From the NCBI GenBank assembly GCA_012522765.1, contig JAAYJW010000331.1, positions 2,331 to 66,330 on the forward strand: DNA of 64,000 nt. The letters run 5' to 3'. Within the stretch, counting starts at the first letter, position 1; each line of letters begins with the position of its first letter. Under the pieces are notes generated by a model that did no database searches, was not told the origin of the DNA, and saw only the letters and a list, made by a program, of their open reading frames with translations. Shown piece after piece: positions 11,635 through 43,282 of this stretch. Both the position numbers and the translations under genes were made by a program. Source of the DNA: a candidate division WS1 bacterium (GTDB lineage Bacteria > Armatimonadota > Zipacnadia > Zipacnadales > UBA5352).

Positions 11635-11976
11635 TCATCTTCCCGAGGACATCGCCTCAATGATCTCAGACTGCGACAGGCTCGAATGCTTTTTCGAGTC
11701 GGCACGTTGCTTCAAACTGAACTTTATATCCAAGCCCAATGCCGTAGCCAATCGTACGAGCGTGCGCACCGTCGTGTTATGCTGCGTGTTCAGGAACCTG
11801 CTCAGCGCACTCGGCTGCATGCCCGCGAGTTCCGCCAGCTCCGCCTGCGTGTATCCCTTCTCCTCCATCGCAGCGTAGATCTTTTCCGCCAGATCGTACA
11901 ACAGACCATCGAGAATGTAATCAGGGTCGCCCTCAAACCTACGCTTGCGCTCCTGATAAGCTTCTGACTGCTTCAT
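11635..11976 (-). CDS. HTH XRE-family antitoxin (HigA-like)
   Basis: Helix-turn-helix YTQAELAELAGMQPSALSRFLN. Lies immediately downstream of the toxin gene (24-nt gap). Confidence 0.8.
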   Translation of the reverse strand: MKQSEAYQERKRRFEGDPDYILDGLLYDLAEKIYAAMEEKGYTQAELAELAGMQPSALSRFLNTQHNTTVRTLVRLATALGLDIKFSLKQRADSKKHSSLSQSEIIEAMSSGR

Positions 11977-12000
11977 GTCTTGGTCCTCCTCCGCCCGCTG

Positions 12001-12450
12001 TTATTCACCCGGATAAGTCGCCAGGTACTGCTTCTTCAAGGCAACCGCTCGGTCTATCTGAGCCTGAGGCGTCTTGTCTGTCTTCTTCGTGAAGCCATGC
12101 GTCAACACTATGAGCCCCCTGCCGTCAGGCAGTTTGCCAGCTCGAAACCAGAACACGCGTGACTGGTACTCTTTCAGTTCGAATAGATTGTTTTGCCCTT
12201 TGATCGGCCGTCCTTTCTCAAGGTTTCGAGGAGGGCCTTGATTGCACATGCGTTCAGCCGCTGCATGAATCTTCTTCTGCCCGGCTTCAGGCAGACTCTC
12301 GACAAACTGATCGAACAGAGTGAGATCGCCTTCTCGTGTGCACAGCGCGACGATCACATACAGCTTCCCTGCCGTAACAAGCTCACGTTTCAGCATGCAG
12401 TCCGCATCTCCAGCAGCCCCGGGAAGGGCATTCATTGTGTATGTTAACAT
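12001..12450 (-). CDS. Gp49-like / HigB-RelE family type II toxin
   Basis: Hallmark C-terminal region NLFELKEYQSRVFWFRAGK...IVLTHGFTKKTDKTPQAQIDRA. Start may be an internal Met, for example MLKRELV. Confidence 0.75.
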   Translation of the reverse strand: MLTYTMNALPGAAGDADCMLKRELVTAGKLYVIVALCTREGDLTLFDQFVESLPEAGQKKIHAAAERMCNQGPPRNLEKGRPIKGQNNLFELKEYQSRVFWFRAGKLPDGRGLIVLTHGFTKKTDKTPQAQIDRAVALKKQYLATYPGE

Positions 12451-12504: not shown

Positions 12505-13650
12505 TTACCCCGCCTCAAGCTCCTCGAGCAGGCCGTCAGGCACTGTCGCGGCGTAGGGGCGGGGGATGCCATCGCGGTCGGAGTTGAAGATCACGTAGCG
12601 ACAGTCAGGGCTGAAGTAGGGGTGCGGGTGGGTGTACTGCGGGCGGCCGATGGATGCCAGCGAATCGCACAGCACCCGCGAGCGGCCCGTGCGCACTGAG
12701 CCGACGATGATCGGGTGGCCTTTTTCGCGCGCGTCGGAGACGAAGAAGCGACCGTCCTTCGAGGCGTTCGGGTGGCAGTAGGTCCATCCGCCGGCGATGG
12801 CGCGCGCGGACGCATCACCCGGGCGCACCGCCAGCAGATTGCCCCTCTTCAGCGCCTCGCGGGGGTCCCTGTGCCAGACGGTGAAGAGGATCTCGCCGCT
12901 CTCCCCCAGCCACGCCTCATGACCCTGGCAACGGGGCGTATGCGGCAGCCCGATCGGCAGTCGCGTCGGGTTGCCCTGCATGTCGATCACGTAGAGCGTG
13001 GAGCCCTGCTCGCCCACATTGCGCGTCATCTGCCCGCGCTCATCCACGATGCATCCGCGATTGTGCTGCACGAGGCAAAGCTCGCCGCCGCCGGGATCGA
13101 TCTGCACATGCGCGTTGGGGATCTCCGGATCGGAGTGGATGACCTCCCACGTCCCGTCCTCGAGGTCCGCCTTCACGATGCCGAAAAGCTGCGGCTCGAG
13201 GCGGGCGGCGTAGATGTATGTGCGACCATCGGGGCTGTACGTGCCGATCGATCGCAGTCGTGGCGCGCCCTCAAGCACGATCTTCTCACGCTGAAGCGTC
13301 TCTATCTCCACCCGCACGATCGTGACCGGGAGTTCGGTGCGGGCGGAGGCGATGCAGAAGTAGCGCTGATCGGGACTCACCGCCGCCCCGCGCAGTTGCT
13401 CAACGTGCTCGGCGACCGGCTCGGACCAGCTTCGCTGCAGATCGGCCCGCCATAGCTCGAACGGTCCCTGCGGTGTATCGCCGAGCGTGTACATCACGTA
13501 GCGCGAGCCTGCATCCATGTAACGAACTTCGCAGTAGATGTTCGACCCGATCCGGCTGCCACTGGTAAGCTGCGTGACCTGCGAGCCTGAGCGCGGATCG
13601 ACCTCGCGCGGAACGAACTCGATTGCCGGACGGAAGATGTTGCTGCGCAT
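12505..13650 (-). CDS. Oligogalacturonide lyase family (PL22-like) beta-propeller protein
   Basis: C-terminal THPHPYFSPDCRYVIFNSDRDG closely matches Ogl THPHPSFTPDDKHILFTSDVDG. N-terminal QLTSG...Y pattern resembles Ogl RLTPP. Confidence 0.65.
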   Translation of the reverse strand: MRSNIFRPAIEFVPREVDPRSGSQVTQLTSGSRIGSNIYCEVRYMDAGSRYVMYTLGDTPQGPFELWRADLQRSWSEPVAEHVEQLRGAAVSPDQRYFCIASARTELPVTIVRVEIETLQREKIVLEGAPRLRSIGTYSPDGRTYIYAARLEPQLFGIVKADLEDGTWEVIHSDPEIPNAHVQIDPGGGELCLVQHNRGCIVDERGQMTRNVGEQGSTLYVIDMQGNPTRLPIGLPHTPRCQGHEAWLGESGEILFTVWHRDPREALKRGNLLAVRPGDASARAIAGGWTYCHPNASKDGRFFVSDAREKGHPIIVGSVRTGRSRVLCDSLASIGRPQYTHPHPYFSPDCRYVIFNSDRDGIPRPYAATVPDGLLEELEAG

Positions 13651-13716
13651 AGTGTGCCTCCGGGAGAAGAGCGTAGGCCATCGGTGGCAGGTTCGGGAGA
13701 GGGCGGCTGCGGACCT

Positions 13717-14615
13717 TCACGTCTTACTCTGAGGCAACGGCCGCGTGGCGAGCCAGACCGCGATGATGATCGCGACCGCTCCGGCGACGAAATGCCATGT
13801 CAGCCCCTCGCCAAGCAGCGCCCAGCCGAGAAGCATCGCCAGCGGAGGCGCAACATACTGTGTCGGCCCGAGGATGTTCGCATCTACCAGCTCCAGCGCG
13901 CGGTACCAGACCAGCATCGCGATGGTGGTCGGGAATATGCCCAGCCAGGCGACGGCAAGCCACTCACGCCAGCCGAGCATGACGTCGGGCCGCCGCGCCA
14001 GCGCCACAATGATCAGCATGAGCGCCCCGGCGATCAGCGTGACCGTTGCCGCCTCGGGACCGCCGAGGAGGCGCACGTAGCGCTTGCCCCAGACGGTGTA
14101 TGCCGCCCAGCAGATTGCCCCGCCGAGCGCGGCCAGCGAGCCGAGCACGTTGTCAATCACCGGCAGCGCCTGCGGCGCCGGTGCGCCCGTCACGATGATC
14201 GCGCAGCCGCCGAGTCCGATCAGCAGCCCGATGAAGCGCAGCAGCGGGACGCGCTCGCCGATGAGCAGCGCGAAGACGCCGATGAAGATGGCGTTCGCGT
14301 TGAGTATCAGCGCGCCATTCATCGAGGTGGTGAGGCTGGCGGAGATGAAGACGAAGATGCCCATCGCGAAGATGCCGATCGCGCCGAGGATGGTCAGCGG
14401 CACGATCTCCTCGGCGGCGCGCATCAGCCGCTGCCAGCGGCCGGTGATGGCGAGAAAGATGACCGCAACCGCCGCACCGACGGCGAAGCGGAGCGCAGCG
14501 GTGAGGATCGGGTCCACACCGCGCCCGGCGGTGGTATACCGCGCCGCAACGAAGACGCTCGACCACAGCGCGCTCGCGATCAACCCCAGCAGCAGACCCT
14601 TCGTGCGATCCGTCA
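13717..14615 (-). CDS. DMT-superfamily (EamA) transporter
   Basis: Ten predicted TM helices with a duplicated EamA pattern. Start MTDRTKGLL with GGGAG RBS. Confidence 0.8.
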
Positions 14616-14671
14616 TTCCCCGGCTCCCTCGGCTCCTTGCCTTCCCCGGCGCATTCGATCTCACTGCAGTC

Positions 14672-17242
14672 CTACGAACCCGGTCGCAGCATCTCCAGCC
14701 TTAAACGTGCCTCATCCGCTGCCGCTGACGCCGGGTACTCATCCACCACCCGCCGAAGCGCCTCCGTTGCGCCGGCGATTTCATCAAGCGGCCCGGCCAG
14801 CACTTCCGCCGCCAACAGCAGCGCCTCCGGCGCCAGCAGGCTCTCCGGGAAGCGTTCCGCCACCGACAGCCACGTCTCCGCCGCCCGGCCGGGGTCATCC
14901 TGCTCCGCCCGCATCTCCGCCAGCAGCAGCAGCGCATCATCCGCCAGCGGCTCATCGCGCGTGCCGGCGATCTCCAGCAACATCTCCTGCGCCAGCCGCC
15001 ACTCGCCACGCTCCCACAGCCCCCGCGCCTCGAGGTACTGCTTCTCCGCGCGCCCGTTGCCATCGAAGTTGGCGCGCACAAACGCTATCCGCTCCAGCGC
15101 ATCATTCGCCTCATCGCTGTGCGGATGATCGCGCGCGACCAGCAGGAAGCGCTCCCGCGCGGCATCGAAGTCCCCCCGCCGCAGAGCGATCTCAGCCAGC
15201 CTCAGTGCGGCCCGGGCAGCGAGATCGCCCGGTGCCGGTGTAAGCGATGGTACGCCGGGCATCTCCGGTAGGTGAACGAAGCCCGGTGGCAGCGGTGGGG
15301 TCTCCCACGGCGTTGCCGACTGCTGCGCCGAAAGCTCCAGCCAGGACTGCTCGGCCTCATCAAGCCGCCCCTCGGCGAAGAGACATTGCGCGATGCCCTC
15401 GCGAGCGGCAAGCGCGTAGCGTGGCTCACCACCGAAGTGTTGCTCCAGCGCCTGCCATGCCTCGCGCGCCTCGTCAATTCGCCGGGCGCGATCGGTGAGC
15501 AGACGCGCCCTGAGCAGCAGCGGCTCCGGGGATTGTTCGAGCCCGTCCAGCGTCGCCAGCGCCTCCCGCCAGTCACCTGCTTCCGCCTGCAGGCGCGCAA
15601 GCTCAGTCGCGACATCCGCCCTGTGCATCGGGGGCAGGTCCATCGTCAGCGCCATCGTGAAGAGCCGCAGCGCGAGGTCCGTCTCACTGCGACGCCGTGC
15701 ATCACGCGCAATCTCGGCGATTTCAGCGCCCGCGCCCGGCACCTCGGCAAGCAGCCCCGCCGCCCGATCGTGCATGCCCACCGCGAAGTAGACGCGAGCC
15801 AGCGCGATGCGCTGCACCGGCGCTGGATCCGCCGATGCGATGTGCTCCTCGACCGCCCGCAGCACTATCTCACCGGCGATCTCATCACGCGCCAGTCGCT
15901 CAAGCTCGATGCCTACGACATACGCCGCCTCATCCTCGCGTCCGAGTGCCGTCAGCAGCTCACGAGCGGCCTCCTCGTACTGCAGCGCCCCCTCGTAAGC
16001 GCGCGCCATCTCCGCGCCCAGCAGCCCCGGATCGCCGGTCGCCTCCCGCGCCTCCGTGATCGCCTCGATCGCCGCGCCGTGGAGCGAGCTGCGCCGCAGG
16101 AGGTTCCACAGTGACCGCACTGAAGTCTCGTCGGCCGCATTGTATCCGACTGAATCCTTGAATTGCTCGACGGCCTCATCAGTGCGCCCCTGGTGCAGAA
16201 GCGCATCGCCAAGCGAGGTGGCGGCCAGTTGGTCGTCGGGGCGCAGCCGAAGCGCCTCACGAAGCGCCTGCTCGGCATCGGCGGGGCTGTTCGCCTCCAG
16301 CGCAGCGTTGCCGAAGGCGATCAGTGTGCCGGGGTCATCCGGCCGAAGCTCCGCCAACCGCGCCCATGCCTCCAGCGCCCCCTCGGCGTCATCCTCCCAG
16401 CGCGCGATGGTGGCAATAAACTCCAGCGCGTCCTCAGGCCGATCGCCATCGGCGTCTGTCCGAAGCCGCTGCAGAAGCCGCTCACGGTCGGCAGCGCGGT
16501 AGATCAGCCGCATCGCCTGCGGCTGTCGCGGGTCGAGTTGCAGGATCTCCCAGCCGATCTCCTCGGCTTGCTGCATGGCACCCAGCCCAAGCAGGCTCTG
16601 CGCCACCTCGGCCATGAGCGAGGCCCGACGCGAAGCATCCTCGGCCGCACGGGCCGCAGCCAGCGCCTCACCGTGCTTGAGCGCGCCAAGCAGCGTCTTC
16701 ACCAGCAGGTCCCGCGCCTGGCGATGCCAGCCGCGATGCACCGGCTGAGCCAACAGGCGCTCAAGCCGGGTGATCGCGGCAGCATGATCTCCCTCATCCA
16801 ACTCAGCCTGCGCCAGCGACAGCAGTGCGTGCCCGACCAGCGGGTGATCGTCGCCCGCGACCTCCAGCAGGCGCGTGTGCGCGTCGCGCGCAAGGTCGCT
16901 GCGCCCGTGCCGGTCCGCCAGCCAGCCGAGGCGCTGCAGGCACGCTACGAGCCACTCACCGCCGCCCTGCAGTCGAAGCGCCGCCGAGAGCGCGGAGATA
17001 GCGCCGTTGCGGTCACCTGCTGTCTCGCGCGCGCCGGCCATCGCGTGCAGCACATGCGCGCGTTGATCGTCATCTGCGGCGACACGCATCGCCTGCTCGA
17101 AGGCGCGCTCGGCGGCGTCGGGCCGGCCCGCAGCGGCCTCCGCAGCCGCCTGCCGAAGCAGCGCCTCAAGGTCCGCCTGCTGTCCCAGCGCCGGCGCCGC
17201 GATCAGCGCCGCAAGCACGAGCACGATCGCCGTGCACCTCAT
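14672..17242 (-). CDS. Secreted tetratricopeptide-repeat (TPR) protein, 856 aa
   Basis: Signal peptide MRCTAIVLVLAALIAAPALG. Entire body is Ala/Leu-rich TPR-like helical repeats. Start overlaps the upstream gene stop (ATGA at 17239-17242). Confidence 0.7.
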   Translation of the reverse strand: MRCTAIVLVLAALIAAPALGQQADLEALLRQAAAEAAAGRPDAAERAFEQAMRVAADDDQRAHVLHAMAGARETAGDRNGAISALSAALRLQGGGEWLVACLQRLGWLADRHGRSDLARDAHTRLLEVAGDDHPLVGHALLSLAQAELDEGDHAAAITRLERLLAQPVHRGWHRQARDLLVKTLLGALKHGEALAAARAAEDASRRASLMAEVAQSLLGLGAMQQAEEIGWEILQLDPRQPQAMRLIYRAADRERLLQRLRTDADGDRPEDALEFIATIARWEDDAEGALEAWARLAELRPDDPGTLIAFGNAALEANSPADAEQALREALRLRPDDQLAATSLGDALLHQGRTDEAVEQFKDSVGYNAADETSVRSLWNLLRRSSLHGAAIEAITEAREATGDPGLLGAEMARAYEGALQYEEAARELLTALGREDEAAYVVGIELERLARDEIAGEIVLRAVEEHIASADPAPVQRIALARVYFAVGMHDRAAGLLAEVPGAGAEIAEIARDARRRSETDLALRLFTMALTMDLPPMHRADVATELARLQAEAGDWREALATLDGLEQSPEPLLLRARLLTDRARRIDEAREAWQALEQHFGGEPRYALAAREGIAQCLFAEGRLDEAEQSWLELSAQQSATPWETPPLPPGFVHLPEMPGVPSLTPAPGDLAARAALRLAEIALRRGDFDAARERFLLVARDHPHSDEANDALERIAFVRANFDGNGRAEKQYLEARGLWERGEWRLAQEMLLEIAGTRDEPLADDALLLLAEMRAEQDDPGRAAETWLSVAERFPESLLAPEALLLAAEVLAGPLDEIAGATEALRRVVDEYPASAAADEARLRLEMLRPGS

Positions 17243-20200
17243 CGCTCCCGCCCCAGTGCCCGGTAGTACTCCCGCACGAGGTCCTCCCAGCCCCGCGGCA
17301 GGCGGTCTGCTCCCCGCCCTCGATGCACCTCGATGCCGCGGGTACGCGTCAGGCTCGGCGACAGCGCCGGCGGGGATGGCGGCGGCTCAAACGCACTCGG
17401 GCGCTCGGCCTTGCGCTCGGGGCTCTCCCGCTCCTTCGTGTACAGCGAGCGCTGCGCCTCAAGCATCTTCTCCAGGATGCGCCCCTGCCGCTCGATCGTC
17501 TCGCGCTGCAGCCGCCCCGAACGCAGGTCGCCCTCGACCTTCTCCATCTCGCCCGGCACCCCGCCAAGCTGATCCGTCATCGAACCGGTCGCCTCACCCC
17601 CGCGACGCATCATCTCCTCCAATGCGCGGCGGATCAGCGCCTGCTCGAAGGCCATCTGCGATGGGCTCATCCCCGGCATCTGCCCCGGCTGGCGCCCCCC
17701 CTGCTCACTCCCGGCAGCCTCCTCGTTCAGAGCCTGCTGCCGCTGAGACAGAGACTTCAGTTGCTCCATGTACTGCTGCAGCGCGGACTGGGCCGACTGC
17801 TGTGAGAGCTGCTCATCCGCCTCCAGCAGCAGTTGCGCAAGCTCGTTCAGCCCGCGCATCACGTTCCGGCCGCGATCGTGCGCGGTAATGATGTCGGCGC
17901 CCTCGATCTCCCGGGCGATCTGCCCCATCTCGTCGGCAATAACGCGTGCCGCCGCCGGTAGCATCGGGTTGATCACCGGCGCCTGCCCGGCCAGCTCGTG
18001 CATCCGCTCGGCCAGCCGCCCCGCGGCCGAAGCCAGCGTGCTCTGCCTGCGTCGGAGCGGTGCCGTCGGGCGCTTGTCCAGCAACAGGTCATTGCGCGAC
18101 CGTCCGCGCGACTCCGCCACCGACCGCGTCACATCCTCCTCGCCCTGCGAGATCACGAGCGTGTCGCGCAACATCTCCGCCAACCGCTTACGCGCCTCGG
18201 CGCTGAAGTCTGACCGAAACTGCTCCTCAAGCTCGCGCAGATCAGCGGCGGCACCCTCCAGCGACCGCGAGGCCTGCTGCTGCGACTCGCCCGCATCAGA
18301 GGGCTGGCCGCGCTCGATGGCGCCCGTCGCGCGTCGCATCTGCGCAGCCGGATCCTCCCTCTGCAGCCGGTCCGCGATTGCCCCGAGCCGCGCCGCCACC
18401 TCAGCATCCACCTCTCGCGCCTGCTCCACGCCCGCCTCGACGCGCTCACTCAGCGGCGCGGTGTCCCTCGCAAGGGCGCGCTGCTCGTTTCCGGTTCGCC
18501 GGCTCTCATCGGAGCGACCATCGGGAAGTTTCGCGGTCTCCTCGGACAACTGCTGCTGGCGTGCGAGGAGCCGCTCCGCCTCCTGCCGCAACTGCCCCAG
18601 CAGCGCCTCGAGGCGCGCCCGGCGCAGCAGCGACAGCGTCTGCTCGAGCCGCTGCATGAAGCGTTCCTGCGCCTCCTGGGCACGTTCGAGGCTCATGCGC
18701 ATCTCCTCGGGCGACTGCGCCTCCATCGCCCGCTGCAGTTCATCAAGCGCCTTCCGCAACTCCTCGTCCATCACGTCGCGCATCAATTCATGAAGCTCGC
18801 GGACCTTCTCCACCAGCTCCGGCGTCATCAGTCCCGACTCGGCAAGCTGCTCCTCCGCCCTCCGCATCGCCTGCTCCAGCCGCCCCGCCTGTTCCTGCAG
18901 CCGCCGCGCAGCCTCCTGCAGTTCGAAGCCCGGACGCGTCGGCGTGGCCTCCTCATCCGCGCCGCCCGCATCCCCGCTCGCGATGCCGCGCAGCGCCTCG
19001 GTCAGTTCCCGCTGGAGCGCCTCAGCGGTCCGTTGAAGCTCCTCCAGCGCATCCGCCTCCTCACTCTGTGCCTGCTCCAGCGGCGTCTCAGGCGCGGCTT
19101 GCTCGAACTCAGCCGCGGCGCCAAGCGTGATGCGAATCGGCGCACTCACCGACGTCTTCCGCCCGCTGAAGGCGTCATTGTCCGTCGCGTATGCGCAGAG
19201 CAGCAACTCTCCGCCGGGCTTCAGCCCGAGCGCGGCCGGGTTCAACCGTGCGTTGGCGGAAGCGACGGCACCCGGCGCCGATTGCAGGGGCAGCGACCGC
19301 CACTGCTCATCCTCGCCGAGGCGGTAACGAAGCCCCAGCGTGCTGATGCCGTAGTCGTCGGAGGCCGCAATTGCCACCTCCACCGGCGCGGCCATCAGCA
19401 GCGAAAGATCGCTCTCAGGGCGCACGAGGCGCACCAGCGGCGGTTGGTCCTCGACCGGCTCCAGCGCCCGCCATGGCGTCGCGGTGGTGGCACCTGCGTC
19501 ACGCGACGTCAGCCGCCAGCGAAGCCGGCTCGTGAGCGTGAAGCTGTGCACGCGGCGGCCATCCGGCTGCGCGGCCATCTCTGCATCCCCGCCGGGCTCA
19601 GCCGTGAAGATCGCCTGTGCGCTCTCGGGGATGGCTGTTGCACTGATGGTGATGCTGCTGCCGAGAGGCGCGCGCACAGCATCAATGCCGGAGGTGGTTG
19701 TGCGACGGGGCTGGTTGCAGTAGGCGGGAGGGTCAATCACGAGGGACAGGTCGAAGATGCTCGGCGGCTGCGTCACGATCGGCTCAGCATCCTCCGCCGA
19801 AGTCAACGCTGGCGCTTCGACTGCCGGAGTTGGCGCGGAGGGAGCGGCGGCCCATGCCAGCATGGCGAGGCCCAGCGCGAGGCATGCTGTCACCGCGGGA
19901 GTCCGCAGCATCCGTACCGGCGCGGCACGCGCGATGGGGAGGTCATTCAGCGCGCAGGTCGCCTCTCGCGCCACTCGCACTACCGCGGCCTCCGAGCGCG
20001 GGGCGCGCCCGGGATCACGTGTGAGCAGGTCCACGGCGGTGGCGACGGTATCCTGCAGGAACGGGAAGGCGCGTTCGACCGCGAGTGCGGCGTCAAGCGG
20101 CCTCAGCGGCGATACGATGCGTGCGAGGGCCGGAAGCAGCGCCACCGGCAACAGCAGGAGCGCGGCAGGACTCTGCAGCACCTCGCGGCCCATCAGCAGC

Positions 20201-20328
20201 AGCGCCCCGGCCGCGATGATGGCCCCAACCGCCAGGCCCTGCAGCAGCCCGACCGCCGCCGCGAGCAGCCGGCGGCGGACCACGTAGGGCCCAAGTGCGG
20301 CCAGGAGGTCAGACCTGACGGGCGTCAC
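17239..20328 (-). CDS. Large membrane-anchored coiled-coil protein (1029 aa), function unknown
   Basis: Three N-terminal TM segments, a beta-rich region, then about 500 aa of charged E/R/Q/A coiled coil. C-terminus ...LPRGWEDLVREYYRALGRER. Coupled between the ABC and TPR genes. Confidence 0.6.
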   Translation of the reverse strand: MTPVRSDLLAALGPYVVRRRLLAAAVGLLQGLAVGAIIAAGALLLMGREVLQSPAALLLLPVALLPALARIVSPLRPLDAALAVERAFPFLQDTVATAVDLLTRDPGRAPRSEAAVVRVAREATCALNDLPIARAAPVRMLRTPAVTACLALGLAMLAWAAAPSAPTPAVEAPALTSAEDAEPIVTQPPSIFDLSLVIDPPAYCNQPRRTTTSGIDAVRAPLGSSITISATAIPESAQAIFTAEPGGDAEMAAQPDGRRVHSFTLTSRLRWRLTSRDAGATTATPWRALEPVEDQPPLVRLVRPESDLSLLMAAPVEVAIAASDDYGISTLGLRYRLGEDEQWRSLPLQSAPGAVASANARLNPAALGLKPGGELLLCAYATDNDAFSGRKTSVSAPIRITLGAAAEFEQAAPETPLEQAQSEEADALEELQRTAEALQRELTEALRGIASGDAGGADEEATPTRPGFELQEAARRLQEQAGRLEQAMRRAEEQLAESGLMTPELVEKVRELHELMRDVMDEELRKALDELQRAMEAQSPEEMRMSLERAQEAQERFMQRLEQTLSLLRRARLEALLGQLRQEAERLLARQQQLSEETAKLPDGRSDESRRTGNEQRALARDTAPLSERVEAGVEQAREVDAEVAARLGAIADRLQREDPAAQMRRATGAIERGQPSDAGESQQQASRSLEGAAADLRELEEQFRSDFSAEARKRLAEMLRDTLVISQGEEDVTRSVAESRGRSRNDLLLDKRPTAPLRRRQSTLASAAGRLAERMHELAGQAPVINPMLPAAARVIADEMGQIAREIEGADIITAHDRGRNVMRGLNELAQLLLEADEQLSQQSAQSALQQYMEQLKSLSQRQQALNEEAAGSEQGGRQPGQMPGMSPSQMAFEQALIRRALEEMMRRGGEATGSMTDQLGGVPGEMEKVEGDLRSGRLQRETIERQGRILEKMLEAQRSLYTKERESPERKAERPSAFEPPPSPPALSPSLTRTRGIEVHRGRGADRLPRGWEDLVREYYRALGRER

Positions 20329-20355
20329 AGGCGCATCCTCCGGATGCTGCTGGGT

Positions 20356-22230
20356 CTACTCCTCGGGCGGCCCCGCGAAATCCGGACGTCCCTGCCCGAA
20401 CCACACGTCCTGCAGGCGGAACTGCCGGTTGTACATCTCTGCGTAGACGCCGTTGCGGGCCATGAGCTGCTCGTGATTGTCCTCCTCGACGATCTGCCCG
20501 CCCTGAATGACGAGTATCTTGTCGGCGTCACGCACGGTAGAGAGCCGGTGGGCGATCACGAAGGTGGTCCGATTGTGTCGCAGGTTGTCCAGCGCGCGCT
20601 GGATGAGCTGCTCGGCCTCGGTGTCTACCAGTGAGGTGGCCTCGTCAAGGATCAGGATGCGCGGGTCAGCGAGCAGCGCGCGAGCAATCGCGATCCGCTG
20701 CTTCTGTCCACCGGAGAGCTTCACGCCGCGTTCGCCTATCATCGTGTCATACTGCTCGGACAGGTCCTTGATGAACTCCCAGGCGTACGCCCGCTCCGCG
20801 GCCTCTTCGATCTCCTCGTCGGTCGCGTCAATCCGGCCGTAGCGGATGTTGTTGCGCACCGTGTCATTGAACAGGAAGGTGTCCTGCAGCACGATGCCGA
20901 TCTGCGACCGTAGGCTGTCAAGCTTCACGTCGCGCACGTCATGCCCATCCACCAGCACCCGGCCCTCCTGCGGGTCGTAGAAGCGGGGGATCAGGTTCAC
21001 CAGCGAAGTCTTCCCGGCACCCGAACGGCCCACGATCGCGACCGTCTCACCGGGCTCGGCCGTCACCGACACGTGCTCCAGCACGATCTCCCCGGTGGAG
21101 TAGCGGAAGGTGATGTCGTCAAGCTCGACGTGCCCCTCGACCTCGGGCAGCTCGATGGCATCCGGCTTCTCCTTGATCTTCGGCTCCTCGTCGAGCAGTT
21201 GGAAGATGCGGGCAAGCGACGCGAGCGCGCGGTTGAATACATTATGCACACGCACGAGGCTGCCGATCGGCTGATAGAAGTGCTGCATGTAGGCGAGGAA
21301 CGCGAGGACATCGCCGCCGGTGACCAGCCCGGTGGTGGTCATCGCCGCCCCGCGCCAGATCACTAGGATCAGACCGATGGACGTGATGAAGCCCATCGCA
21401 GGAAAAAACGTGGTCCACAGCCAGATGCCCCTCACGTTAGAGCGGAAGTAGTCGGTGCTTTCGTCGGCAAAGCGCCCGTACTCGTGCTCCTCGCGATTGA
21501 AAGCCTTCACGACCTGCGTGCCCTCGAGGCTCTCCTGCAGCCGGGCGTTGATGTCGCCAAGCTTCTCCCGGATGTGCTCGTAGAGCGGACGGATGATGCG
21601 CCCGAAGATGACGATGCCAACCACGAAGATCGGCAGTGGCGCCATTCCGACGAGGGCGAGGTGCGTGTTCATCCAGAGGATGATGGCGATGGTGGCAATG
21701 ACCGTGATCGAGTCCGAGATGAGGGTGTCTACGCCATGCACCACCATGTCCTCAACTGCGTTCACATCGTTGGAGATGCGCGACATGATGTCGCCGGTGC
21801 GCCGCGTCTCGAAGAACTCCAGCGGCTGGCGCAGCAGGTGCCGGTACGCGTTGAGCCGCACATCAAGCACAAAGCGCTGACCAAGCTGGTGCATAACGTT
21901 CATCCGGACGGCGCGGAAAAGCTCCATGGCGAAGAAGGTAGCGAGCAGCAGCCAGCCGAGGCGCGGCAGCGGGCCAAGATCGCCTGCCGCTATGACGTCA
22001 TCGTATATCTGCTTGAGGATCTGAGGGTAGTAAAGCGATGCCGCGGTTGCGGCGAGCATCGAGATCAGCCCGAGCAGCAGCTTGGGCCAGTGGGGGCCGA
22101 GGTATGCGGCGAACCACGCCAGCATGCGCCGGTCCGTGATGGACAGAGGCTCAACCTGCTCCTCGTAGCGATCTGCCTCGCGATGGTGTCCGCCGCCACC
22201 GCCTCGGCCGCGTCCGTGTCCGCCTAACAT
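20356..22230 (-). CDS. ABC transporter, fused permease/ATPase (type I exporter, MsbA-like)
   Basis: Six-TM domain plus NBD. Walker A GRSGAGKTS, signature LSGGQKQRIAIARAL, Walker B ILILDEATS. True start may be the internal Met (MLAWFAAYL); the G/R-rich N-terminus is doubtful. Confidence 0.88.
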   Translation of the reverse strand: MLGGHGRGRGGGGGHHREADRYEEQVEPLSITDRRMLAWFAAYLGPHWPKLLLGLISMLAATAASLYYPQILKQIYDDVIAAGDLGPLPRLGWLLLATFFAMELFRAVRMNVMHQLGQRFVLDVRLNAYRHLLRQPLEFFETRRTGDIMSRISNDVNAVEDMVVHGVDTLISDSITVIATIAIILWMNTHLALVGMAPLPIFVVGIVIFGRIIRPLYEHIREKLGDINARLQESLEGTQVVKAFNREEHEYGRFADESTDYFRSNVRGIWLWTTFFPAMGFITSIGLILVIWRGAAMTTTGLVTGGDVLAFLAYMQHFYQPIGSLVRVHNVFNRALASLARIFQLLDEEPKIKEKPDAIELPEVEGHVELDDITFRYSTGEIVLEHVSVTAEPGETVAIVGRSGAGKTSLVNLIPRFYDPQEGRVLVDGHDVRDVKLDSLRSQIGIVLQDTFLFNDTVRNNIRYGRIDATDEEIEEAAERAYAWEFIKDLSEQYDTMIGERGVKLSGGQKQRIAIARALLADPRILILDEATSLVDTEAEQLIQRALDNLRHNRTTFVIAHRLSTVRDADKILVIQGGQIVEEDNHEQLMARNGVYAEMYNRQFRLQDVWFGQGRPDFAGPPEE

Positions 22231-22427
22231 TCAGGTCACTCCAGGGTGAACGGGCATTGCCGGTGGGAAAGCGGATTGCGCCGGTGAGGTGTGCGTAGAG
22301 CAGGGGCACATACCCTCGGGCCTCCCCCGTCGCCCCGACATCTGCAACGGGTGCATTATACCGGGAGGGTGCTGATGATGGCAAGTTCGCCGTTGGCCGA
22401 TGTGCACAGGCAGAACCCCCGTACAAG

Positions 22428-22480: not shown

Positions 22481-22717
22481 CTACCACCGGCTGGCGGAGT
22501 CGCCACCGGGGGCGGCGTCGATCACAACGACGTTCGTGGCACGGGGGCCCTTCGCGTCCTGCTCGATGTCGAACTCGACTTTCGAACCCTCGGTCAGGCT
22601 CTTGTAGCCCTCACCAGCGATTGCGGAGTAATGCACGAATGCATCCTCGCCGTTCTCGGTCTCGATGAAGCCGAAGCCCTTGCCGTCGTCGAACCATTTG
22701 ACTGTTCCAGTCGCCAT
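22481..22717 (-). CDS. csp: Cold-shock protein (CspA family)
   Basis: [33 protein letters not shown] with RNP1/RNP2 motifs. 78 aa with a short C-terminal extension. Confidence 0.92.
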
Positions 22718-22913: not shown

Positions 22914-24602
22914 TCAACGGAACCTGACCCAGCCGAACCCCGGACCGATGTACGTGCTCCCACCGCCGAGGTCGCCGGTGAGCCCGAAGCTGTGGTCCGC
23001 ATCAGCGCGCTCAAGCTGAGACCGCTCTCCCACCCGCGCCAGCAGATTCTGCGCCTCCAGCAGTCCCGGCTCGATCGAGAGCACCGCCCGCAACTGCTCC
23101 TCCGCCCCCTCAAAATCCCTCATCGCCGCGAGCGACGACGCCATCGCCATCCGCACCGGGATCAGCCCCGGGTCCTCATCCAGTACGCTTCGCCACAGCC
23201 GCAGCGCCTCATCGGTGCGCCCCTCATCCGCCGCGATCGCGCCCAGGTGCAGCCGCGCCGACAGGCGCACTTCGTCCCGCTCTGTCAGTCTCGCCGCCCG
23301 CTCCAGCGCCTCGCGTGCCTCCCTCCGCCGTTGCAGTGCCGCCAGCGACACGCCGAGGTCATGCCAGGCGTCATCGTCCTCCGCGTCCAGCCGCAGCCCC
23401 TTCTTGTATGACGCCACGGCCTCAGTGAAACGATTGCCGACCGCCAGCAGGTCCCCCAACTCATTGTGCAGTGCGGCGCTCTGTGGGTCGCGACTGATGG
23501 CTCGACGATACGCGCTCTCAGCCGCCCGCAGGTCGCCCTGCGCCAGCAGCCTCCGCGCATGCTTGTGATAGTACTCCTGCATCTCATCGGCCTCGGGCCC
23601 TTCGCTCTGCACCAGGCCGCAGGCGAGGCAGACGCGGCCGGCGGGCGATACCGGGCGACGGCATGCGGTGCAGACGCGTACGCGCGGACCCGCCGCGGTG
23701 GGTGCGACATCCGGTCCGTGGCCGATGGCGCGGGCGGGCATGGACCTGCGCGCGCGATCGCCACGGATCATGTCGCCGAAGGCGTTGACACTGAGAGGCC
23801 GCCGGTCAGCTTCATCGGAGATCGCCGCCGCGATCGCGCCGCGCAACCCGGCGGGGGTAGCCGCGGGAAGCAGGTCGATCTCCAGCGGCGGCAGTCCCTC
23901 TGAGGCCAACGCGACCCCGCCCACCTCAAGGTATGAGAAGCGCCCGACTCCCGCCGCGGGCGTCGCATCCGGCACGCCCGCAAGCGCGATGAAGAGCAGC
24001 ACACCGAGGCTGTAGATGTCCGAGAGCGGGTTGATGATGCCGCCATTGCGGAACTCGGGCGCGAAGGAAAGCTCGTGCCCCGCGGAGTAGCGCGGGCGCT
24101 TCCGGGTAGAGTTGGCGTAGAGCGCGGCGATGGCGAAGTCCGTGATCAGCACGCCACCGTCGGGCATCAGGAAGACGTTCTCGGGCCGCAGACTCGTGTG
24201 ATACACGCAGCGCTGATGGGCGTACTGCAGGCCGGCACAAAGCTGGCGCGCGATTGACAGAACCTCCTGCGGATCGAGCAAGCCGTCATGCTCCAGCACC
24301 TCGGCGAGTGAGCGCCCGCCGGCGACCTCTTCGACTATCGCGACATGCTTGCCCGCCAGCACGATGTGCCTGACGTTGCAGATGGTCGGGTGTGTCATCG
24401 CCACAACGACGCGCGCGATCCGGCTGAATGCGTCGCCGAGACTGCCCTTGACGGGCTCATGCAACCGCTTGAGCGCCAGACGCTGGTGCTTTTCCTCGTC
24501 GAGGACCGCGTACACGGTGCCGTGCGGGCCGGAGCCGATGACATCCTGCACCGCGTAGGGACCTACACGGACCGTTTCGTCGCCATGAGTGTTGTCAGGC
24601 AT
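22914..24602 (-). CDS. Hanks-type protein kinase-fold protein (predicted pseudokinase) fused to zinc ribbon and TPR repeats
   Basis: Gly-loop IGSGPHGTVY, VAIK-like LALKRL, APE SFAPEF, and DIYSLGVLL are present. The catalytic loop reads YHTSLRPEN rather than HRDLKPEN, and DFG is DFA. CxxC...CxxC (CTACRRPVSPAGRVCLACG) is followed by TPR repeats. Confidence 0.75.
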   Translation of the reverse strand: MPDNTHGDETVRVGPYAVQDVIGSGPHGTVYAVLDEEKHQRLALKRLHEPVKGSLGDAFSRIARVVVAMTHPTICNVRHIVLAGKHVAIVEEVAGGRSLAEVLEHDGLLDPQEVLSIARQLCAGLQYAHQRCVYHTSLRPENVFLMPDGGVLITDFAIAALYANSTRKRPRYSAGHELSFAPEFRNGGIINPLSDIYSLGVLLFIALAGVPDATPAAGVGRFSYLEVGGVALASEGLPPLEIDLLPAATPAGLRGAIAAAISDEADRRPLSVNAFGDMIRGDRARRSMPARAIGHGPDVAPTAAGPRVRVCTACRRPVSPAGRVCLACGLVQSEGPEADEMQEYYHKHARRLLAQGDLRAAESAYRRAISRDPQSAALHNELGDLLAVGNRFTEAVASYKKGLRLDAEDDDAWHDLGVSLAALQRRREAREALERAARLTERDEVRLSARLHLGAIAADEGRTDEALRLWRSVLDEDPGLIPVRMAMASSLAAMRDFEGAEEQLRAVLSIEPGLLEAQNLLARVGERSQLERADADHSFGLTGDLGGGSTYIGPGFGWVRFR

Positions 24603-24732: not shown

Positions 24733-25146
24733 ATGCCGATCTGCTCTATCTGCGGAACGACGATCGAAGCGGACGCCAAGTTCTGCGCTGAGTGCGGGGC
24801 CGGAGTTGGGAACGAGGAGGAGATGGATGTATCCGAGACGATGATCGCGATGGCCGCGGAGTATGAGCGCAAGGTGCGCGAGAATCCCGAAGATACCTCC
24901 GCTCGCTATGATCTCGGGTTGGCCCGGATGTACGAGCGCAAGTGGGGTCGCGCGGCGGAGCAGTTCCAGCGCGTCATTGATCTGCAGCCGGAGTTCGCCG
25001 ATGCGCATGCGAACCTCTCGGTCTGCCTCTCCAAGCTCGGTCAACCCGACCGCGCGCTCGAAGAGGCGGAGACCGCGATCGAGCTTGATCCGGGCAAGAA
25101 GCGCTACAGGAAGATCAAGCGCCAACTGACCGGCCGAACACACTGA
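24733..25146 (+). CDS. Zinc-ribbon + TPR small protein
   Basis: N-terminal MPICSICGTTIEADAKFCAECG followed by two or three TPR motifs. Divergent from the pseudokinase gene. Confidence 0.65.
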   Translation: MPICSICGTTIEADAKFCAECGAGVGNEEEMDVSETMIAMAAEYERKVRENPEDTSARYDLGLARMYERKWGRAAEQFQRVIDLQPEFADAHANLSVCLSKLGQPDRALEEAETAIELDPGKKRYRKIKRQLTGRTH

Positions 25147-30117: not shown

Positions 30118-30843
30118 TCAGGCCTCCTCCGCCCGCAGGCACAACACGTCCACCAGGTCGGCGACAGAGTCCAGCACGAGGTCGGCGCCAAGCTCCTCGA
30201 ACTGCTCCCGCGTGGTGCCGGCTGTAAGGACGCCCGCTGTCCATGCTCCCGCGGCCCTGCCGGTCTCGATGTCCGTGATATGATCGCCCACCATCAGCGT
30301 CTGCGCGGGCGTGGCCTCGAGCACCTCCAGCGCCAGGTGCAGGTGCTCGGGGTCGGGCTTGACGCGCACCACGTCGTCACGCGTAAGCAACACCTCGTGG
30401 TGCAGCGGGTGGCGGCTCACAACGCTCTCGACGCCGGTGCGGCAGTTACGTGTGATGATGCCCACGCGATGACCGCAGGCGCGAAGCATTTCCAGCGTCT
30501 CCGGCACTCCGGGGAAGGGCGCGGCAGTCGTGGTGGAAAGCAGTTCAACTTCCAGCATCGCCTGCTGCGCCTCTTCGTGGAAACGCTGACGATCGCTCTC
30601 ATCGAGCAGCGCCATCGCGTCCTGCACGATCTCAAGGATGTAGCGCCTCGAATTAAGGTGCTCGATCAGCCGCCACCGCTCGGCGACTTCCAGCACCCGC
30701 TGCCGCATGAGGGCGAAGTCAATGTTGGTCTCCGCGAGGGTGCCGTCGAAGTCGAAGACGACGGCCCGGATCGCGGCCGGGTCGAAGATGAGTTGCTGCT
30801 GCTCGGGTTGAGTGCTCATGTGATGAAGACCGGCGAGGCCCAC
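30118..30843 (-). CDS. HAD-superfamily phosphatase (HAD-IA)
   Basis: Motif I VVFDFDGTL; motifs II-IV present (MVGDHITDIETGRAAG). Likely start at MSTQPE. Confidence 0.85.
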   Translation of the reverse strand: MGLAGLHHMSTQPEQQQLIFDPAAIRAVVFDFDGTLAETNIDFALMRQRVLEVAERWRLIEHLNSRRYILEIVQDAMALLDESDRQRFHEEAQQAMLEVELLSTTTAAPFPGVPETLEMLRACGHRVGIITRNCRTGVESVVSRHPLHHEVLLTRDDVVRVKPDPEHLHLALEVLEATPAQTLMVGDHITDIETGRAAGAWTAGVLTAGTTREQFEELGADLVLDSVADLVDVLCLRAEEA

Positions 30844-32306
30844 GCCATCTCGCCATCGGCCTGAGTGATGCGAAGGTAGTAGTAGTCGCCCGGGCGCGCC
30901 GGCTCAGCGTCGCTGAGGGTGACGCTGGCGCGGCTGTCAGCCGATGACACGGTCGCGATCTCGCGGTTGTTCTTCACGAGTTCGATGGCGCTCAGCGCTG
31001 CGGTGCCGATGATCTCGGCCTGCAACTCGGCGGGGCCGCTGATCTCCTCAGCGGCGATCTCGCCGCCCATCGGCGTGTCGCCGAGACTGAAGCGGACGAT
31101 GATCCGTGCGCCGGTGGTGGCGTAGCAGCGACGGGCACGTAGCGCGTCGAAGATGCCGTCGCGGGTGAGGCTGTCCGCCCAGACGCCGGTGATCCCGGGC
31201 GGGGCGAGGAAGTCGGTCTCTGCAATCACATGCCAGCCGTGTACCAGCGGACGCGAGGGGCGGCCGTCGTGCGACTCCGAGCCACCGGTGAAGCCGAAGC
31301 GCCAGCCGCGCGCGAGGCCGTCCTGCAGATGGTGGCCGCGAGCCTCGCCCGTCTTGAAGTAGCCACCCGAGGGCAGATACTTGATCGGGTAGGGCTCGCC
31401 GGGCTTCTCCGAGCTGCCCCAGATGGAGAACACCTCGCAGCAGCGCTCAAGCTCCGCGTCGCTGTAGTCCCAGTTCATCCACGTGTTGCCACCGCCGCGG
31501 GCGGTGTGATGCGGGAATGAGAGCACATCCGCAGTCGGCATCGCCTCGCGCAGTGCTCGGAAGAGACCCTCGGCGGTATGTGTCGCATATTCGTTTGAAC
31601 GGAAGATCGGCACCTGCTCGATGCCGCGCGCACGGTTGCGGCGGTAGATGATATGCCGGTGGCCGAAGTTGCGCGACATGTCCTGCGAGTTGCCCCACTC
31701 ATAGCCGGGGAAGGTGACGAAGCGGCCGCTCTCGTTCAGCCGCCGATGCACCTCGATCTGCTGCGCCCATTCGTCATCGGTGAGGTTGAGGTCGTGGTCG
31801 GAGACGGTGGCGAAGTGGATTGCCGCCACGTCGCGCGCCCACGCGAGTGCATCCCCGACAGTAGGCGGGCCCATCAGCAGGTCCGCATCGCTGATGAGAG
31901 CCTGTGCGGGCCGCTCGCGGATGTGCGAGTGGACATCGCCCCAGTAGAGCGACAGCGGCCCTGGTTCGACGCTTACCTCCAGCGGATCGGAGCCCGCGTG
32001 AAAGCCGCCGAGGGTGGCCTCGATGTGATAGACGCCCGCCTCAGGCGCCACGATCTCCAGGTGCCCGAGACCTTCGTCAATCTGCACACTATCGAGATCG
32101 CTGGGGCCATCTGCACCGACGAGGCTGAGAGCCGCGGTGCCTGCGCCGTCGGTGGCGGTGGCGCCGATGCCGTTAAGTGCCTGCACGGTGACCCGAACGC
32201 GGTCACCGTACGTGGCACTACTGTCGGTTACGACCCGGAGGCCTGTGACCTCCGGGTCGATGAGCCTCTGAACGACCTCAGGGAGCGGCGGGGGCTCCTG
32301 TGCCAT
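30816..32306 (-). CDS. DUF3604 family protein (paralogue 1), putative PHP-like metal-dependent phosphoesterase
   Basis: Motifs YWGDVHSHI, SGRFVTFPGYEWGN, and C-terminal DYYYLRITQADGEMAWASPVFIT. Start MAQEPP (ATG 32304-32306) with GGAGGTG RBS. Overlaps the UPF0182 gene end. Confidence 0.75.
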   Translation of the reverse strand: MAQEPPPLPEVVQRLIDPEVTGLRVVTDSSATYGDRVRVTVQALNGIGATATDGAGTAALSLVGADGPSDLDSVQIDEGLGHLEIVAPEAGVYHIEATLGGFHAGSDPLEVSVEPGPLSLYWGDVHSHIRERPAQALISDADLLMGPPTVGDALAWARDVAAIHFATVSDHDLNLTDDEWAQQIEVHRRLNESGRFVTFPGYEWGNSQDMSRNFGHRHIIYRRNRARGIEQVPIFRSNEYATHTAEGLFRALREAMPTADVLSFPHHTARGGGNTWMNWDYSDAELERCCEVFSIWGSSEKPGEPYPIKYLPSGGYFKTGEARGHHLQDGLARGWRFGFTGGSESHDGRPSRPLVHGWHVIAETDFLAPPGITGVWADSLTRDGIFDALRARRCYATTGARIIVRFSLGDTPMGGEIAAEEISGPAELQAEIIGTAALSAIELVKNNREIATVSSADSRASVTLSDAEPARPGDYYYLRITQADGEMAWASPVFIT

Positions 32307-35401: not shown

Positions 35402-35884
35402 CTACTGCTCCGGCTCATCCTCGTCCAGTTCGATCCTGCCCAGCAGGTCCTTAAACTTCTCGAGGTCCTGCTCACTCTGTTCCACCGTCTCATCCACGAT
35501 CTGCGCGACTTTCAGGACATCCTCGGCCACGAAGATCGGCACGTCGGCACGTAGAGCAAGAGCTATCGCGTCAGACGGTCGTGAATCAATCTCAAGCCGC
35601 TCACCGTCGCGCGTAACCTGCAGCAGCGCGAAGAATGTGCGGTCCTCAAGTCGCGTAACCTCAATTCGGTTGAGTTCCCAGCCCGTCTCGTCGATGATCG
35701 CCAGCAGCAGGTCGTGCGTGAGCGGTCGCCCGATGTCCTCTCCGCTGATCGCCATAGCGATCGACTGCGCCTCAAAGAGCCCTATCATGATCGGCAGAAG
35801 CCGGCGCTCTTCCTCATCGGCGAGAATCACGAGTGCCTGCCGGTTCGGATCTATCCCCACACGCTGGACCGTCATCTGGACCAT
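35402..35884 (-). CDS. Bifunctional nuclease (BFN/DUF151) domain protein
   Basis: VGIDPNRQALVILADEEERRLLPIMIGLFEAQSIA matches the BFN N-terminal region. Start taken at MVQMTVQ. Confidence 0.7.
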   Translation of the reverse strand: MVQMTVQRVGIDPNRQALVILADEEERRLLPIMIGLFEAQSIAMAISGEDIGRPLTHDLLLAIIDETGWELNRIEVTRLEDRTFFALLQVTRDGERLEIDSRPSDAIALALRADVPIFVAEDVLKVAQIVDETVEQSEQDLEKFKDLLGRIELDEDEPEQ

Positions 35885-36092
35885 CGACGTCGAGCCTCCT
35901 CCACCGTGCACCGAACCCACCCTCTGCGGTTGTCGGCAATAACCGCAGTCGCACACAGCAGGGCCTGTCATCGCAAAGTTAAGCCTATCACAGGCTGTTG
36001 CCGGAAGTCAAACTTGAGGGCCGGCCAATCGGGCAGGAGGCATCCCGTAGGCGCTGTTGCGGGCCAGTCACGTTCGGTGGAACGCAGATGGT

Positions 36093-41025: not shown

Positions 41026-41117
41026 GTCTGGTCCTCCCGATGAATGACCGAAGGGGCCGGACTCGGCCGCTCCCATCGAGCGTCCTCGTGCGGCCCCTCC
41101 TCGTCTTCAGTCTCAGA

Positions 41118-43175: not shown

Positions 43176-43246
43176 GTGCAGGACCTCCTTGGTAGTGAAC
43201 GAAACCGGTGAGCCGGAACGTGACAGGCGGCAAGTGACGGCACAAC

Positions 43247-43277
43247 GGCGGCGGGGTACAAGCCCCCGCCCTATAAC
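43247..43277. repeat. REP-like hairpin GGCGGGGTACAAGCCCCCGCCC (module B)
   Basis: Near-identical to 50646-50670. Perfect 8-bp GC stem with TACAAG loop. Confidence 0.55.
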
Positions 43278-43282
43278 ATCTC

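Follow-up and report, generated by a model that had tools for sequence, protein, structure and literature searches.

Located on the minus strand of a 64,000-nucleotide stretch of DNA from a candidate division WS1 bacterium (contig JAAYJW010000331.1, assembly GCA_012522765.1; the whole stretch is hereafter the window) are four co-directional genes, at positions 13717-22230, that encode an ABC half-transporter, a large protein related to the DUF4175 family, a secreted tetratricopeptide repeat (TPR) protein and an EamA-type transporter. The interpretation that we favor, with about even confidence, is that these genes constitute a real and probably co-transcribed unit, the core of which is an inner-membrane-anchored, periplasmic DUF4175-TPR scaffold of the Bat/MoxR-associated gene set, with the ABC exporter as a lineage-specific partner and the EamA protein as a passenger. 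On the basis of the comparisons described below, only the pair formed by the DUF4175-like and TPR proteins is conserved across phyla, and the quartet is thus a lineage-specific rearrangement of a widespread envelope gene set.

An earlier, sequence-only reading of this region had recognized no catalytic motif in the large protein. It matches Pfam DUF4175 (PF13779) with E=1.3e-5 and 23.9 bits. Its homologues of 52-61% identity derive from Armatimonadota metagenome-assembled genomes, several of them annotated as DUF4175 or with PF13779, and the matches of a profile search pass gradually into PF13779 proteins of the Myxococcota, Gemmatimonadales and other groups at E values of 1e-30 to 1e-54. Alignment with hhalign of the family profile, A1, to P0075, a bona fide DUF4175 protein (Pfam 74.1 bits), gave 99.85% and E=7.6e-31 over residues 188-409, which comprise the two beta-sandwich domains. 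Taken together, the annotation of the homologues, the profile search and this alignment place the large protein in a very large DUF4175 superfamily, of which it is a divergent member. Indeed, with clusters counted at 50% identity, an exhaustive profile search returned 5,972 cluster representatives at E<=1e-30 and 15,709 at E<=1e-10, and many of the matches are full-length at ~1,000-1,150 aa. A search of the long remote homologues (1,626-1,838 aa) for domain fusions that might be informative found none. BatA was also considered as a relative of the large protein, and direct comparison showed no relation. The large protein is thus not an orphan, although the family itself has no known function. 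The family is, moreover, a known one that occurs in a different context, beside DUF4159, in other genomes, an outcome that the sequence-only reading had itself named as contrary to its proposal.

The gene for the large protein (17239-20328, minus strand) begins with GTG and encodes 1029 residues. The AlphaFold2 model, built with 26 homologues, has a mean predicted local distance difference test (pLDDT) score of 81.6 and a predicted template modeling score (pTM) of 0.46, such that the inter-domain arrangement is uncertain. The N-terminal anchor, residues 1-160 (19849..20328, minus), contains three hydrophobic helices as judged by hydropathy (residues 21-39, 50-68 and 140-158), in keeping with the three N-terminal transmembrane (TM) helices of the earlier description, and AlphaFold2 models helices from residues 2 to 160. 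A small helical domain (residues 73-140) lies between TM2 and TM3. The N-terminus carries four Lys/Arg residues, and the linker following TM3 has none and four Asp/Glu. From hydropathy and charge we infer a topology with the N-terminus inside and the C-terminus outside; the partner proteins carry signal peptides.

The anchor is followed by two tandem Ig-like beta-sandwiches formed by residues 189-291 and 297-401 (19126..19764, minus; pLDDT ~90 in the AlphaFold2 model). Foldseek returned generic tandem Ig/FnIII matches for them, with E ~1e-4, and this region is the part most clearly common to the large protein and bona fide DUF4175. Conserved within it, across 74 family members, is an Asp cluster (D294, D307, D324-D325-x-G327 and D383) that is possibly metal-binding. 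The charged helical region, residues 415-975 (~560 aa; 17404..19086, minus), is predicted to form a chain of up-down helical bundles. Within it lies the block that is best conserved in the family, again among 74 members; it reads L..GR....T..RQ......ML.A.R.L and extends from residue 931 to 962 (nt 17443-17538). A conserved C-terminal helix seen in the AlphaFold2 model, residues 1011-1025 (...LVREYYRALG; 17254..17298, minus), is preceded by an Arg/Pro-rich disordered stretch, and V1017 and Y1020/1021 are invariant across phyla. Fold searches with the large protein returned Ig-like sandwiches and four-helix bundles. The architecture expected of DUF4175, namely two to three N-terminal TM helices and then an extracytoplasmic low-complexity region of ~800-1100 aa, is present, given the topology predicted above. 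The sequence-only reading had described an envelope-facing protein with no catalytic motif, and the present data support an inner-membrane-anchored, probably periplasmic and non-catalytic protein.

Immediately downstream is the TPR gene (14672-17242, minus; 856 aa). Its product is, as had been proposed, a TPR protein with a probable signal peptide: 17 TPR-type Pfam families were matched along its whole length, and the N-terminus contains a hydrophobic signal-like segment, MRCTAIVLVLAALIAAPALG/QQ. A single-sequence model (pLDDT 70) is all-alpha, with ~45 hairpin helices and one Pro-rich linker at residues 644-670. Residues 280-852 (14687..16405, minus) align collinearly, by hhalign, with the partners whose genes follow DUF4175-like genes in other phyla. 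Specifically, the profile of the TPR family of the window (C9) aligns with the Gemmatimonadota family C3 at 99.4% (E=4.7e-21, 521 columns), with the Calditrichota partner from locus L032 at E=1e-18, and with the UBP2 partner from L053 at E=6e-21. The control, an alignment with the kinase-TPR family, was much weaker (E=4.8e-9, 253 columns). It is this collinearity, set against the weaker control, that defines the DUF4175-like protein and its TPR partner as the cross-phylum unit; the collinear partner spans at least four phyla. The C-terminal portion of the TPR protein (residues ~671-850) is a YbgF/CpoB- and BamD-like TPR_6 module. It falls below the tol_pal_ybgF cut-off (TIGR02795; 79.2 versus 90.1 bits, over the C-terminal 115 aa only) and, at 40.6 bits, below that of BamD. 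No tolQRAB/pal or bam genes adjoin the module among the neighbors scanned.

Gene neighborhoods were compared in 80 species-representative loci, for which open reading frames (ORFs) were called and the neighboring genes clustered and then checked by tblastn. In Gemmatimonadota (~50 loci), Calditrichota, Edwardsbacteria, Fermentibacteria and an unassigned group, where the large protein is 22-29% identical to that of the window, DUF4159 lies upstream, and C3, a ~600-aa weak-TPR protein, and C2, a conserved 430-aa protein with a twin-arginine translocation signal, lie downstream. DUF4159 is directly upstream of the DUF4175-like gene in 50 loci, the Fermentibacteria order being DUF4159, DUF4175-like and TPR-like, and signal peptides are present on the DUF4159 proteins and on the TPR partners alike. 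When the window is compared with this DUF4159-DUF4175-TPR cassette, the upstream DUF4159 is missing and the collinear downstream TPR partner is present.

Two further proteins of these cassettes deserve mention. C2 (L062:14157-15452, plus strand, with equivalents in ~45 loci) has a twin-arginine-like signal, RRREFV, and no Pfam match. Its gene is the second after that for the DUF4175-like protein. C2 sequences share 62-88% identity among the Gemmatimonadota and 53-60% in the P0027 group, and are more conserved than either the DUF4175-like or the TPR proteins; C2 does not occur in the window. A 430-aa protein encoded upstream of the ABC gene in L090 was considered as a possible C2 and does not belong to that family. 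In the Calditrichota locus L030 (12610-15261, plus), an 883-aa patatin-POTRA-Omp85 fusion follows DUF4159-DUF4175 and replaces the TPR partner, and is an outer-membrane link for the cassette.

The related loci of Armatimonadota, from the class Candidatus Zipacnadia, present a different arrangement. The close clade consists of 14 distinct loci in which the large protein is 45-61% identical to that of the window and, where the contig is long enough, is accompanied by the ABC (69-80%), TPR (37-50%) and EamA (60-78%) proteins. The ABC gene is directly 5' of the large gene in 14/14 of these loci and the TPR gene directly 3' in 14/14. The upstream kinase-TPR gene and ~10 further flanking genes are also syntenic, among them those for AIR synthase-like, metallophosphoesterase, GGT and GFO oxidoreductase proteins, and the quartet is therefore inseparable from general synteny within the close clade. 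Mid-distance Armatimonadota, in which the large protein is 32-38% identical, retain the ABC gene (56-59%) directly upstream in five of the six assessable loci, where the DUF4175-like protein is only 32-36% identical, with neither the TPR nor the EamA gene, and the remaining neighbors vary from locus to locus (L021, L022, L024, L026 and L091). The ABC-DUF4175 pairing was also recovered from the ABC side in L091, and the spacing between the ABC and large genes stays at 15-30 nt in the relatives. DUF4159 was found neither in the window nor in any Armatimonadota locus of the ABC type that was examined, and no ABC neighbor of a DUF4175-like gene was seen in other phyla among the loci examined. As can be seen, the ABC half-transporter of Armatimonadota takes the upstream slot held elsewhere by DUF4159, and on this ground it is considered a lineage-specific operon partner of Zipacnadia and their relatives. 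The upstream partner of DUF4175 is accordingly a secreted DUF4159 protein in some lineages and an ABC exporter in others.

These comparisons divide the earlier proposal of a single four-gene module. Its ABC component is indeed a conserved neighbor of the large gene within Armatimonadota; the EamA gene and the full quartet are confined to the close clade, and some ABC orthologues have no gene for the large protein beside them. To the extent of the literature searched, neither the arrangement with the ABC gene nor the conserved, collinear TPR partner appears to have been described; databases already contain the family and its Bat/DUF4159 context.

Several observations concern the loci of the mid-distance relatives. 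The genes downstream of the large gene in L021, L022, L023 and L027 were considered as divergent TPR partners and are unrelated to both the TPR family of the window and C3; L026 and L020 encode HD and CHASE2 proteins at that position. A gene for an AIM24-family protein (~225 aa) is directly upstream of the ABC orthologue in L021, L023 and L091 and two genes upstream in L090, and in the window a cold-shock gene occupies the corresponding slot. In L091 the ABC-DUF4175 pair (13035-17875, minus) abuts an opposite-strand Arn-like set of polysaccharide deacetylase, epimerase/dehydratase, formyltransferase, GT2 and PMT_2 glycosyltransferase genes, and a PMT_2 gene is also found near the ABC orthologue of L092. 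Such neighbors perhaps point to a substrate that is a lipid or glycolipid.

The ABC gene (20356-22230, minus; 624 aa) encodes an ABCB-type (type IV fold) half-transporter, with Pfam matches to ABC_membrane (1.9e-52) and ABC_tran (1.4e-35). Following an N-terminal tail rich in Gly, His and Arg, the transmembrane domain extends from residue 51 to 321 and the nucleotide-binding domain from residue 384 to 533. The Walker A, signature, Walker B-Glu and H-loop motifs, as read from the sequence, are all intact. The best NCBIfam matches are to the CphA-associated ABC, MsbA, MsbA-related and HlyB models, all below their curated cut-offs. The MsbA lipid A flippase equivalogs are not reached (TIGR02203, 494.9 versus 602 bits; NF008381, 420 versus 867 bits), nor is the model for HlyB-type type I secretion (416 versus 725.55 bits). 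The nearest solved bacterial chains are those of Sav1866 (410 bits), TM287/288, TmrAB and MsbA (366 bits). The protein is 100% identical to one from a "candidate division WS1" metagenome-assembled genome.

The last gene of the quartet (13717-14664, minus) encodes a 10-TM transporter of the drug/metabolite transporter (DMT) family with two EamA domains (Pfam 6e-37). It contains 315 residues if translation begins at GTG or 299 if it begins at ATG 14616; the latter is the more likely start, and a GAGGGAG Shine-Dalgarno sequence is present there. The EamA gene follows the TPR gene only in the close clade (60-78% identity) and is not present at the locus in the mid-distance Armatimonadota or the other phyla examined; it is a clade-restricted operon passenger. 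An ancestral ABC-EamA pair, suggested by the Sumerlaeota locus L092, was rejected since the EamA protein encoded there has no BLAST similarity to that of the window.

With respect to gene structure, all four ORFs were confirmed at the coordinates first assigned to them. The G+C content at third codon positions (GC3) is 0.79-0.87 for each, which together with the clear homologues identifies them as genes rather than chance ORFs. Read directly from the sequence, the ABC and large genes are separated by 27 nt, the stop and start codons of the large and TPR genes overlap by 4 nt in an ATGA (17239-17242), exactly as had been described, and the TPR and EamA genes are separated by 7 nt (GTG start) or 55 nt (ATG start). 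The gaps of 28 and 8-56 nt given in the sequence-only reading were each one base too high. A GGAGGA Shine-Dalgarno sequence lies 7 nt 5' of the GTG start of the large gene, and similarly tight gene spacing is found in relatives.

Upstream of the ABC gene is a 78-aa cold-shock (csp) gene (22481-22717) followed by a perfect 13-bp terminator hairpin (22458->22428, minus; dG -24.3 kcal/mol, z -5.4). A strong predicted sigma-70-like promoter, TTGCCA-18 nt-TATAAT (22384->22355, minus; 11/12 matches), is positioned downstream of this hairpin and ~125 nt 5' of the ABC start codon. Promoter-like sites number four in 11 kb, versus 0.9 expected, and this site (22355..22384) scores best. Given the hairpin and the 11/12 promoter, the ABC gene is probably the first in its transcription unit. 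Rfam and tRNA scans of the window gave no matches, and the empty Rfam scan indicates that the ABC leader contains no riboswitch. Beyond the EamA gene no terminator was detected, and the next co-directional gene (12505-13650) begins 66 nt on. The ABC, DUF4175-like, TPR and EamA genes, behind one promoter, thus probably form a single co-transcribed unit.

A model for the function of the core can be proposed. The DUF4175-like protein would be anchored in the inner membrane by its three TM helices, with its N-terminus in the cytoplasm and its C-terminal part in the periplasm, where it would project the two Ig-like domains, with their acidic and possibly metal-binding cluster, and then a ~560-aa rod of helical bundles. 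It would recruit the translationally coupled TPR protein, the C-terminal YbgF/BamD-like repeats of which are of a type that binds outer-membrane- or peptidoglycan-associated partners. The two proteins would together form a non-catalytic envelope scaffold belonging to a widespread gene set with DUF4159 and, more loosely, MoxR-DUF58-BatA, operons whose mutants have envelope or stress phenotypes. The ABCB exporter may supply the scaffold with a substrate, whether lipid, glycolipid or peptide, this being the least supported step; judged from sequence, a functional coupling of the two is plausible.

The association with MoxR, DUF58 and BatA derives from one remote DUF4175 locus, L088, in which the co-directional order is DUF4175, TPR/Peptidase_MA_2, MoxR, DUF58 and BatA. 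The TPR/Peptidase_MA_2 protein was compared with the TPR protein of the window as a candidate relative and shows generic TPR similarity only. The sequence-only reading had found no match to the Bat/MoxR systems. As regards layout this holds, for tblastn detected neither MoxR nor BatA in the 64-kb window, and neither a cluster containing MoxR and DUF58 nor a BatA/BatB-type protein with TM and von Willebrand factor A (VWA) segments was found. It does not hold for the family, relatives of which lie beside DUF4159 (50 loci) and MoxR-DUF58-BatA (L088). Bat proteins have been proposed to form a periplasmic complex that affects the envelope or stress tolerance (PMC3557215, PMC5700661), and papers that cite the Rhizobium MoxR-type operon attribute envelope or morphology phenotypes to it (PMC3557215, PMC5700661, PMC3893208).

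Several points weigh against the scaffold interpretation. MoxR, DUF58 or BatA lies within 10 kb of the DUF4175-like gene in only 1-2 of ~85 loci, the window itself has only a lone DUF58 gene (36093-36998, minus) ~16 kb from the module, and the function of the Bat proteins has itself been called elusive (PMC3557215). The family assignment is to be read with the large protein scoring below the Pfam DUF4175 gathering score (23.9 versus 27.3 bits) and with an NCBIfam scan, TIGR02302 included, giving no matches, and the inter-domain arrangement of the model is, as noted above, uncertain. The literature search found no experiment on any DUF4175 or DUF4159 protein. Mid-distance Armatimonadota have no TPR partner after the large gene, the proteins encoded there being unrelated HD, CHASE2 or no-Pfam proteins. 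Finally, adjacency by itself is weak evidence of function, since the Gemmatimonadota pair shares its spacing with RsmI and the DinG-like helicase: the cassette is often found between rsmI and the helicase gene at tight operon spacing.

The DUF58 protein of the window is 41% identical to that of L088, and its gene is flanked by those for NifU (36995-37456) and a bifunctional-nuclease (BFN)-domain protein (35402-35971).

The strongest rival explanation, which we regard as a distinctly less probable though serious possibility, is that the neighbors are uncoupled: a housekeeping MsbA/Sav1866-like lipid or drug exporter and an unrelated EamA metabolite exporter, with the DUF4175-TPR pair between them, all kept together by vertical inheritance and shared transcription. 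The close-clade synteny that covers ~10 further unrelated genes speaks for it. ABC orthologues of 56-63% identity are very numerous, several are labeled MsbA by JGI, and two of three sampled have no DUF4175-like neighbor, a result that also counts against the favored interpretation. The DUF4175-like genes of other phyla have no ABC neighbor, and in Gemmatimonadota the pair shares its operons with RsmI and a helicase. This explanation does not account for the ABC-DUF4175 adjacency outlasting the turnover of other neighbors in L021, L022, L024, L026 and L091, for the constancy of the gap at 15-30 nt, or for the placement of the ABC gene in exactly the slot of DUF4159.

A dedicated trans-envelope exporter is unlikely. 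It would consist of the ABC pump, the DUF4175-like protein as a periplasmic adaptor analogous to HlyD or MacA, and the TPR protein as an outer-envelope docking factor. An ABC-adaptor-like order with short gaps does recur in ~20 Armatimonadota loci, the large protein, which is membrane-anchored with beta domains and long helices, resembles a membrane fusion protein (MFP) in outline, and the small domain between TM2 and TM3, if cytoplasmic as predicted, could contact the ABC protein, which itself gives 416 bits to the HlyB-type type I secretion model. That model's cut-off of 725 bits is, however, far from reached. No Pfam match to the HlyD/MFP family was obtained for the large protein, and its Ig-like sandwiches and four-helix bundles are not the lipoyl, beta-barrel and hairpin architecture of an MFP. 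No gene for a TolC-like or other outer-membrane channel occurs among the neighboring genes scanned, and the set that characterizes type I secretion or tripartite efflux, an HlyB/PrtD-type ABC protein with an HlyD adaptor and an outer-membrane factor, was not found. In most phyla, furthermore, the large protein pairs with DUF4159 and no transporter, and ABC orthologues occur without it. Of the earlier suggestion of a non-metabolic trans-envelope scaffold or export system, then, the envelope-facing and non-metabolic character is upheld, and the dedicated export system becomes a minority reading.

A related and slightly more doubtful proposal is that, in Zipacnadia-type Armatimonadota, the DUF4175-like protein was recruited as an ABCB adaptor in place of DUF4159, such that the ABC, DUF4175 and TPR proteins would constitute an undescribed trans-envelope export or lipid-handling machine. 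If true, this would open a first way into the function of the very large DUF4175/DUF4159 gene set, and a functional ABC link would suggest that the whole set handles an exported envelope component. It is highly improbable that the large protein acts in cell division or morphogenesis in the manner of AdvA, which in Acinetobacter baumannii is an essential component of the divisome and has a partial DUF4175 region and two TM helices (PMC7481262): AdvA is reported to combine such a region with a division role, and an envelope or morphology phenotype of the Rhizobium MoxR-type cmd operon is confirmed in papers citing it, but the AdvA match is confined to the N-terminal TM-proximal part (PMC7481262), no division genes occur among the neighbors scanned, and the homology to bona fide DUF4175 sits in the predicted periplasmic beta-sandwiches. 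The window taken alone is a lineage-specific operon variant and not a new kind of system. The conserved TPR partner and the switch of upstream partner together offer three testable pairings, DUF4175-TPR, DUF4175-DUF4159 and DUF4175-ABC.

Other features of the window are as follows. Just upstream of the module is a gene for a Ser/Thr kinase with C-terminal TPRs (22914-24602, minus), and divergent from it is one for a zinc-ribbon and TPR protein of 137 aa (24733-25146, plus). Both are syntenic with the module across the close clade (kinase 53-67% identity), and a regulatory link is conceivable. Below the module by ~1.3 kb, after gene 12505-13650, is a toxin-antitoxin-like pair (11635-12450, minus), consisting of a Gp49/HigB-like protein (12001-12450; PF05973) and then an HTH_3 protein (11635-11976); it looks recently inserted because it is missing from the syntenic relatives L001 and L002. 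Three paralogous DUF3604-domain proteins are encoded within 18 kb (30816-32528, minus; 39547-41076, minus; 46379-48271, plus), and one of their genes adjoins that of a UPF0182 membrane protein (32278-35289). The ORFs at 41118-43772 (884 aa, weak DUF4139 match) and 43283-44395 (370 aa, no Pfam match), both on the minus strand, overlap by ~490 nt, and translation of the 884-aa gene probably begins downstream of the start given here.

With regard to known systems, the ABC protein is like the MsbA and Sav1866 ABCB half-transporters in domain order and fold class; it differs from MsbA in scoring below the equivalog cut-off and in having no lpx genes adjacent to it. The C-terminal ~180 aa of the TPR protein resemble the TPR_6-type repeats of CpoB/YbgF and BamD, and the protein is probably secreted; it differs in being an 856-aa solenoid without a coiled-coil trimerization domain. 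The HlyB-HlyD-TolC and MacAB-TolC systems likewise have an ABC gene with, close to it, one whose product is periplasmic, is anchored in the membrane and contains beta domains and long helices, but the large protein of the window has another fold and no MFP/HlyD signature. The Bat/MoxR operons (Borrelia BB0170-0176, Leptospira batABD and Rhizobium cmdA-D/RL3499-RL3502) combine inner-membrane or periplasmic non-catalytic proteins with TPR partners, and the window module differs from them in having no adjoining MoxR ATPase or VWA/BatA protein. In Rhizobium, mutation of the MoxR-type cmd operon reportedly causes morphology defects, and cmdD presumably encodes a DUF4175 protein. The DUF4159-DUF4175 and MoxR-DUF58-BatA clusters differ from the window in that the latter has an ABC exporter in the upstream slot. 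Finally, the DUF4175 (PF13779) family displays the same N-terminal TM anchor, tandem beta-sandwiches and long low-complexity helical C-terminal region as the window protein, and its clusters in several phyla encode, as does the window, a TPR-type protein immediately downstream.

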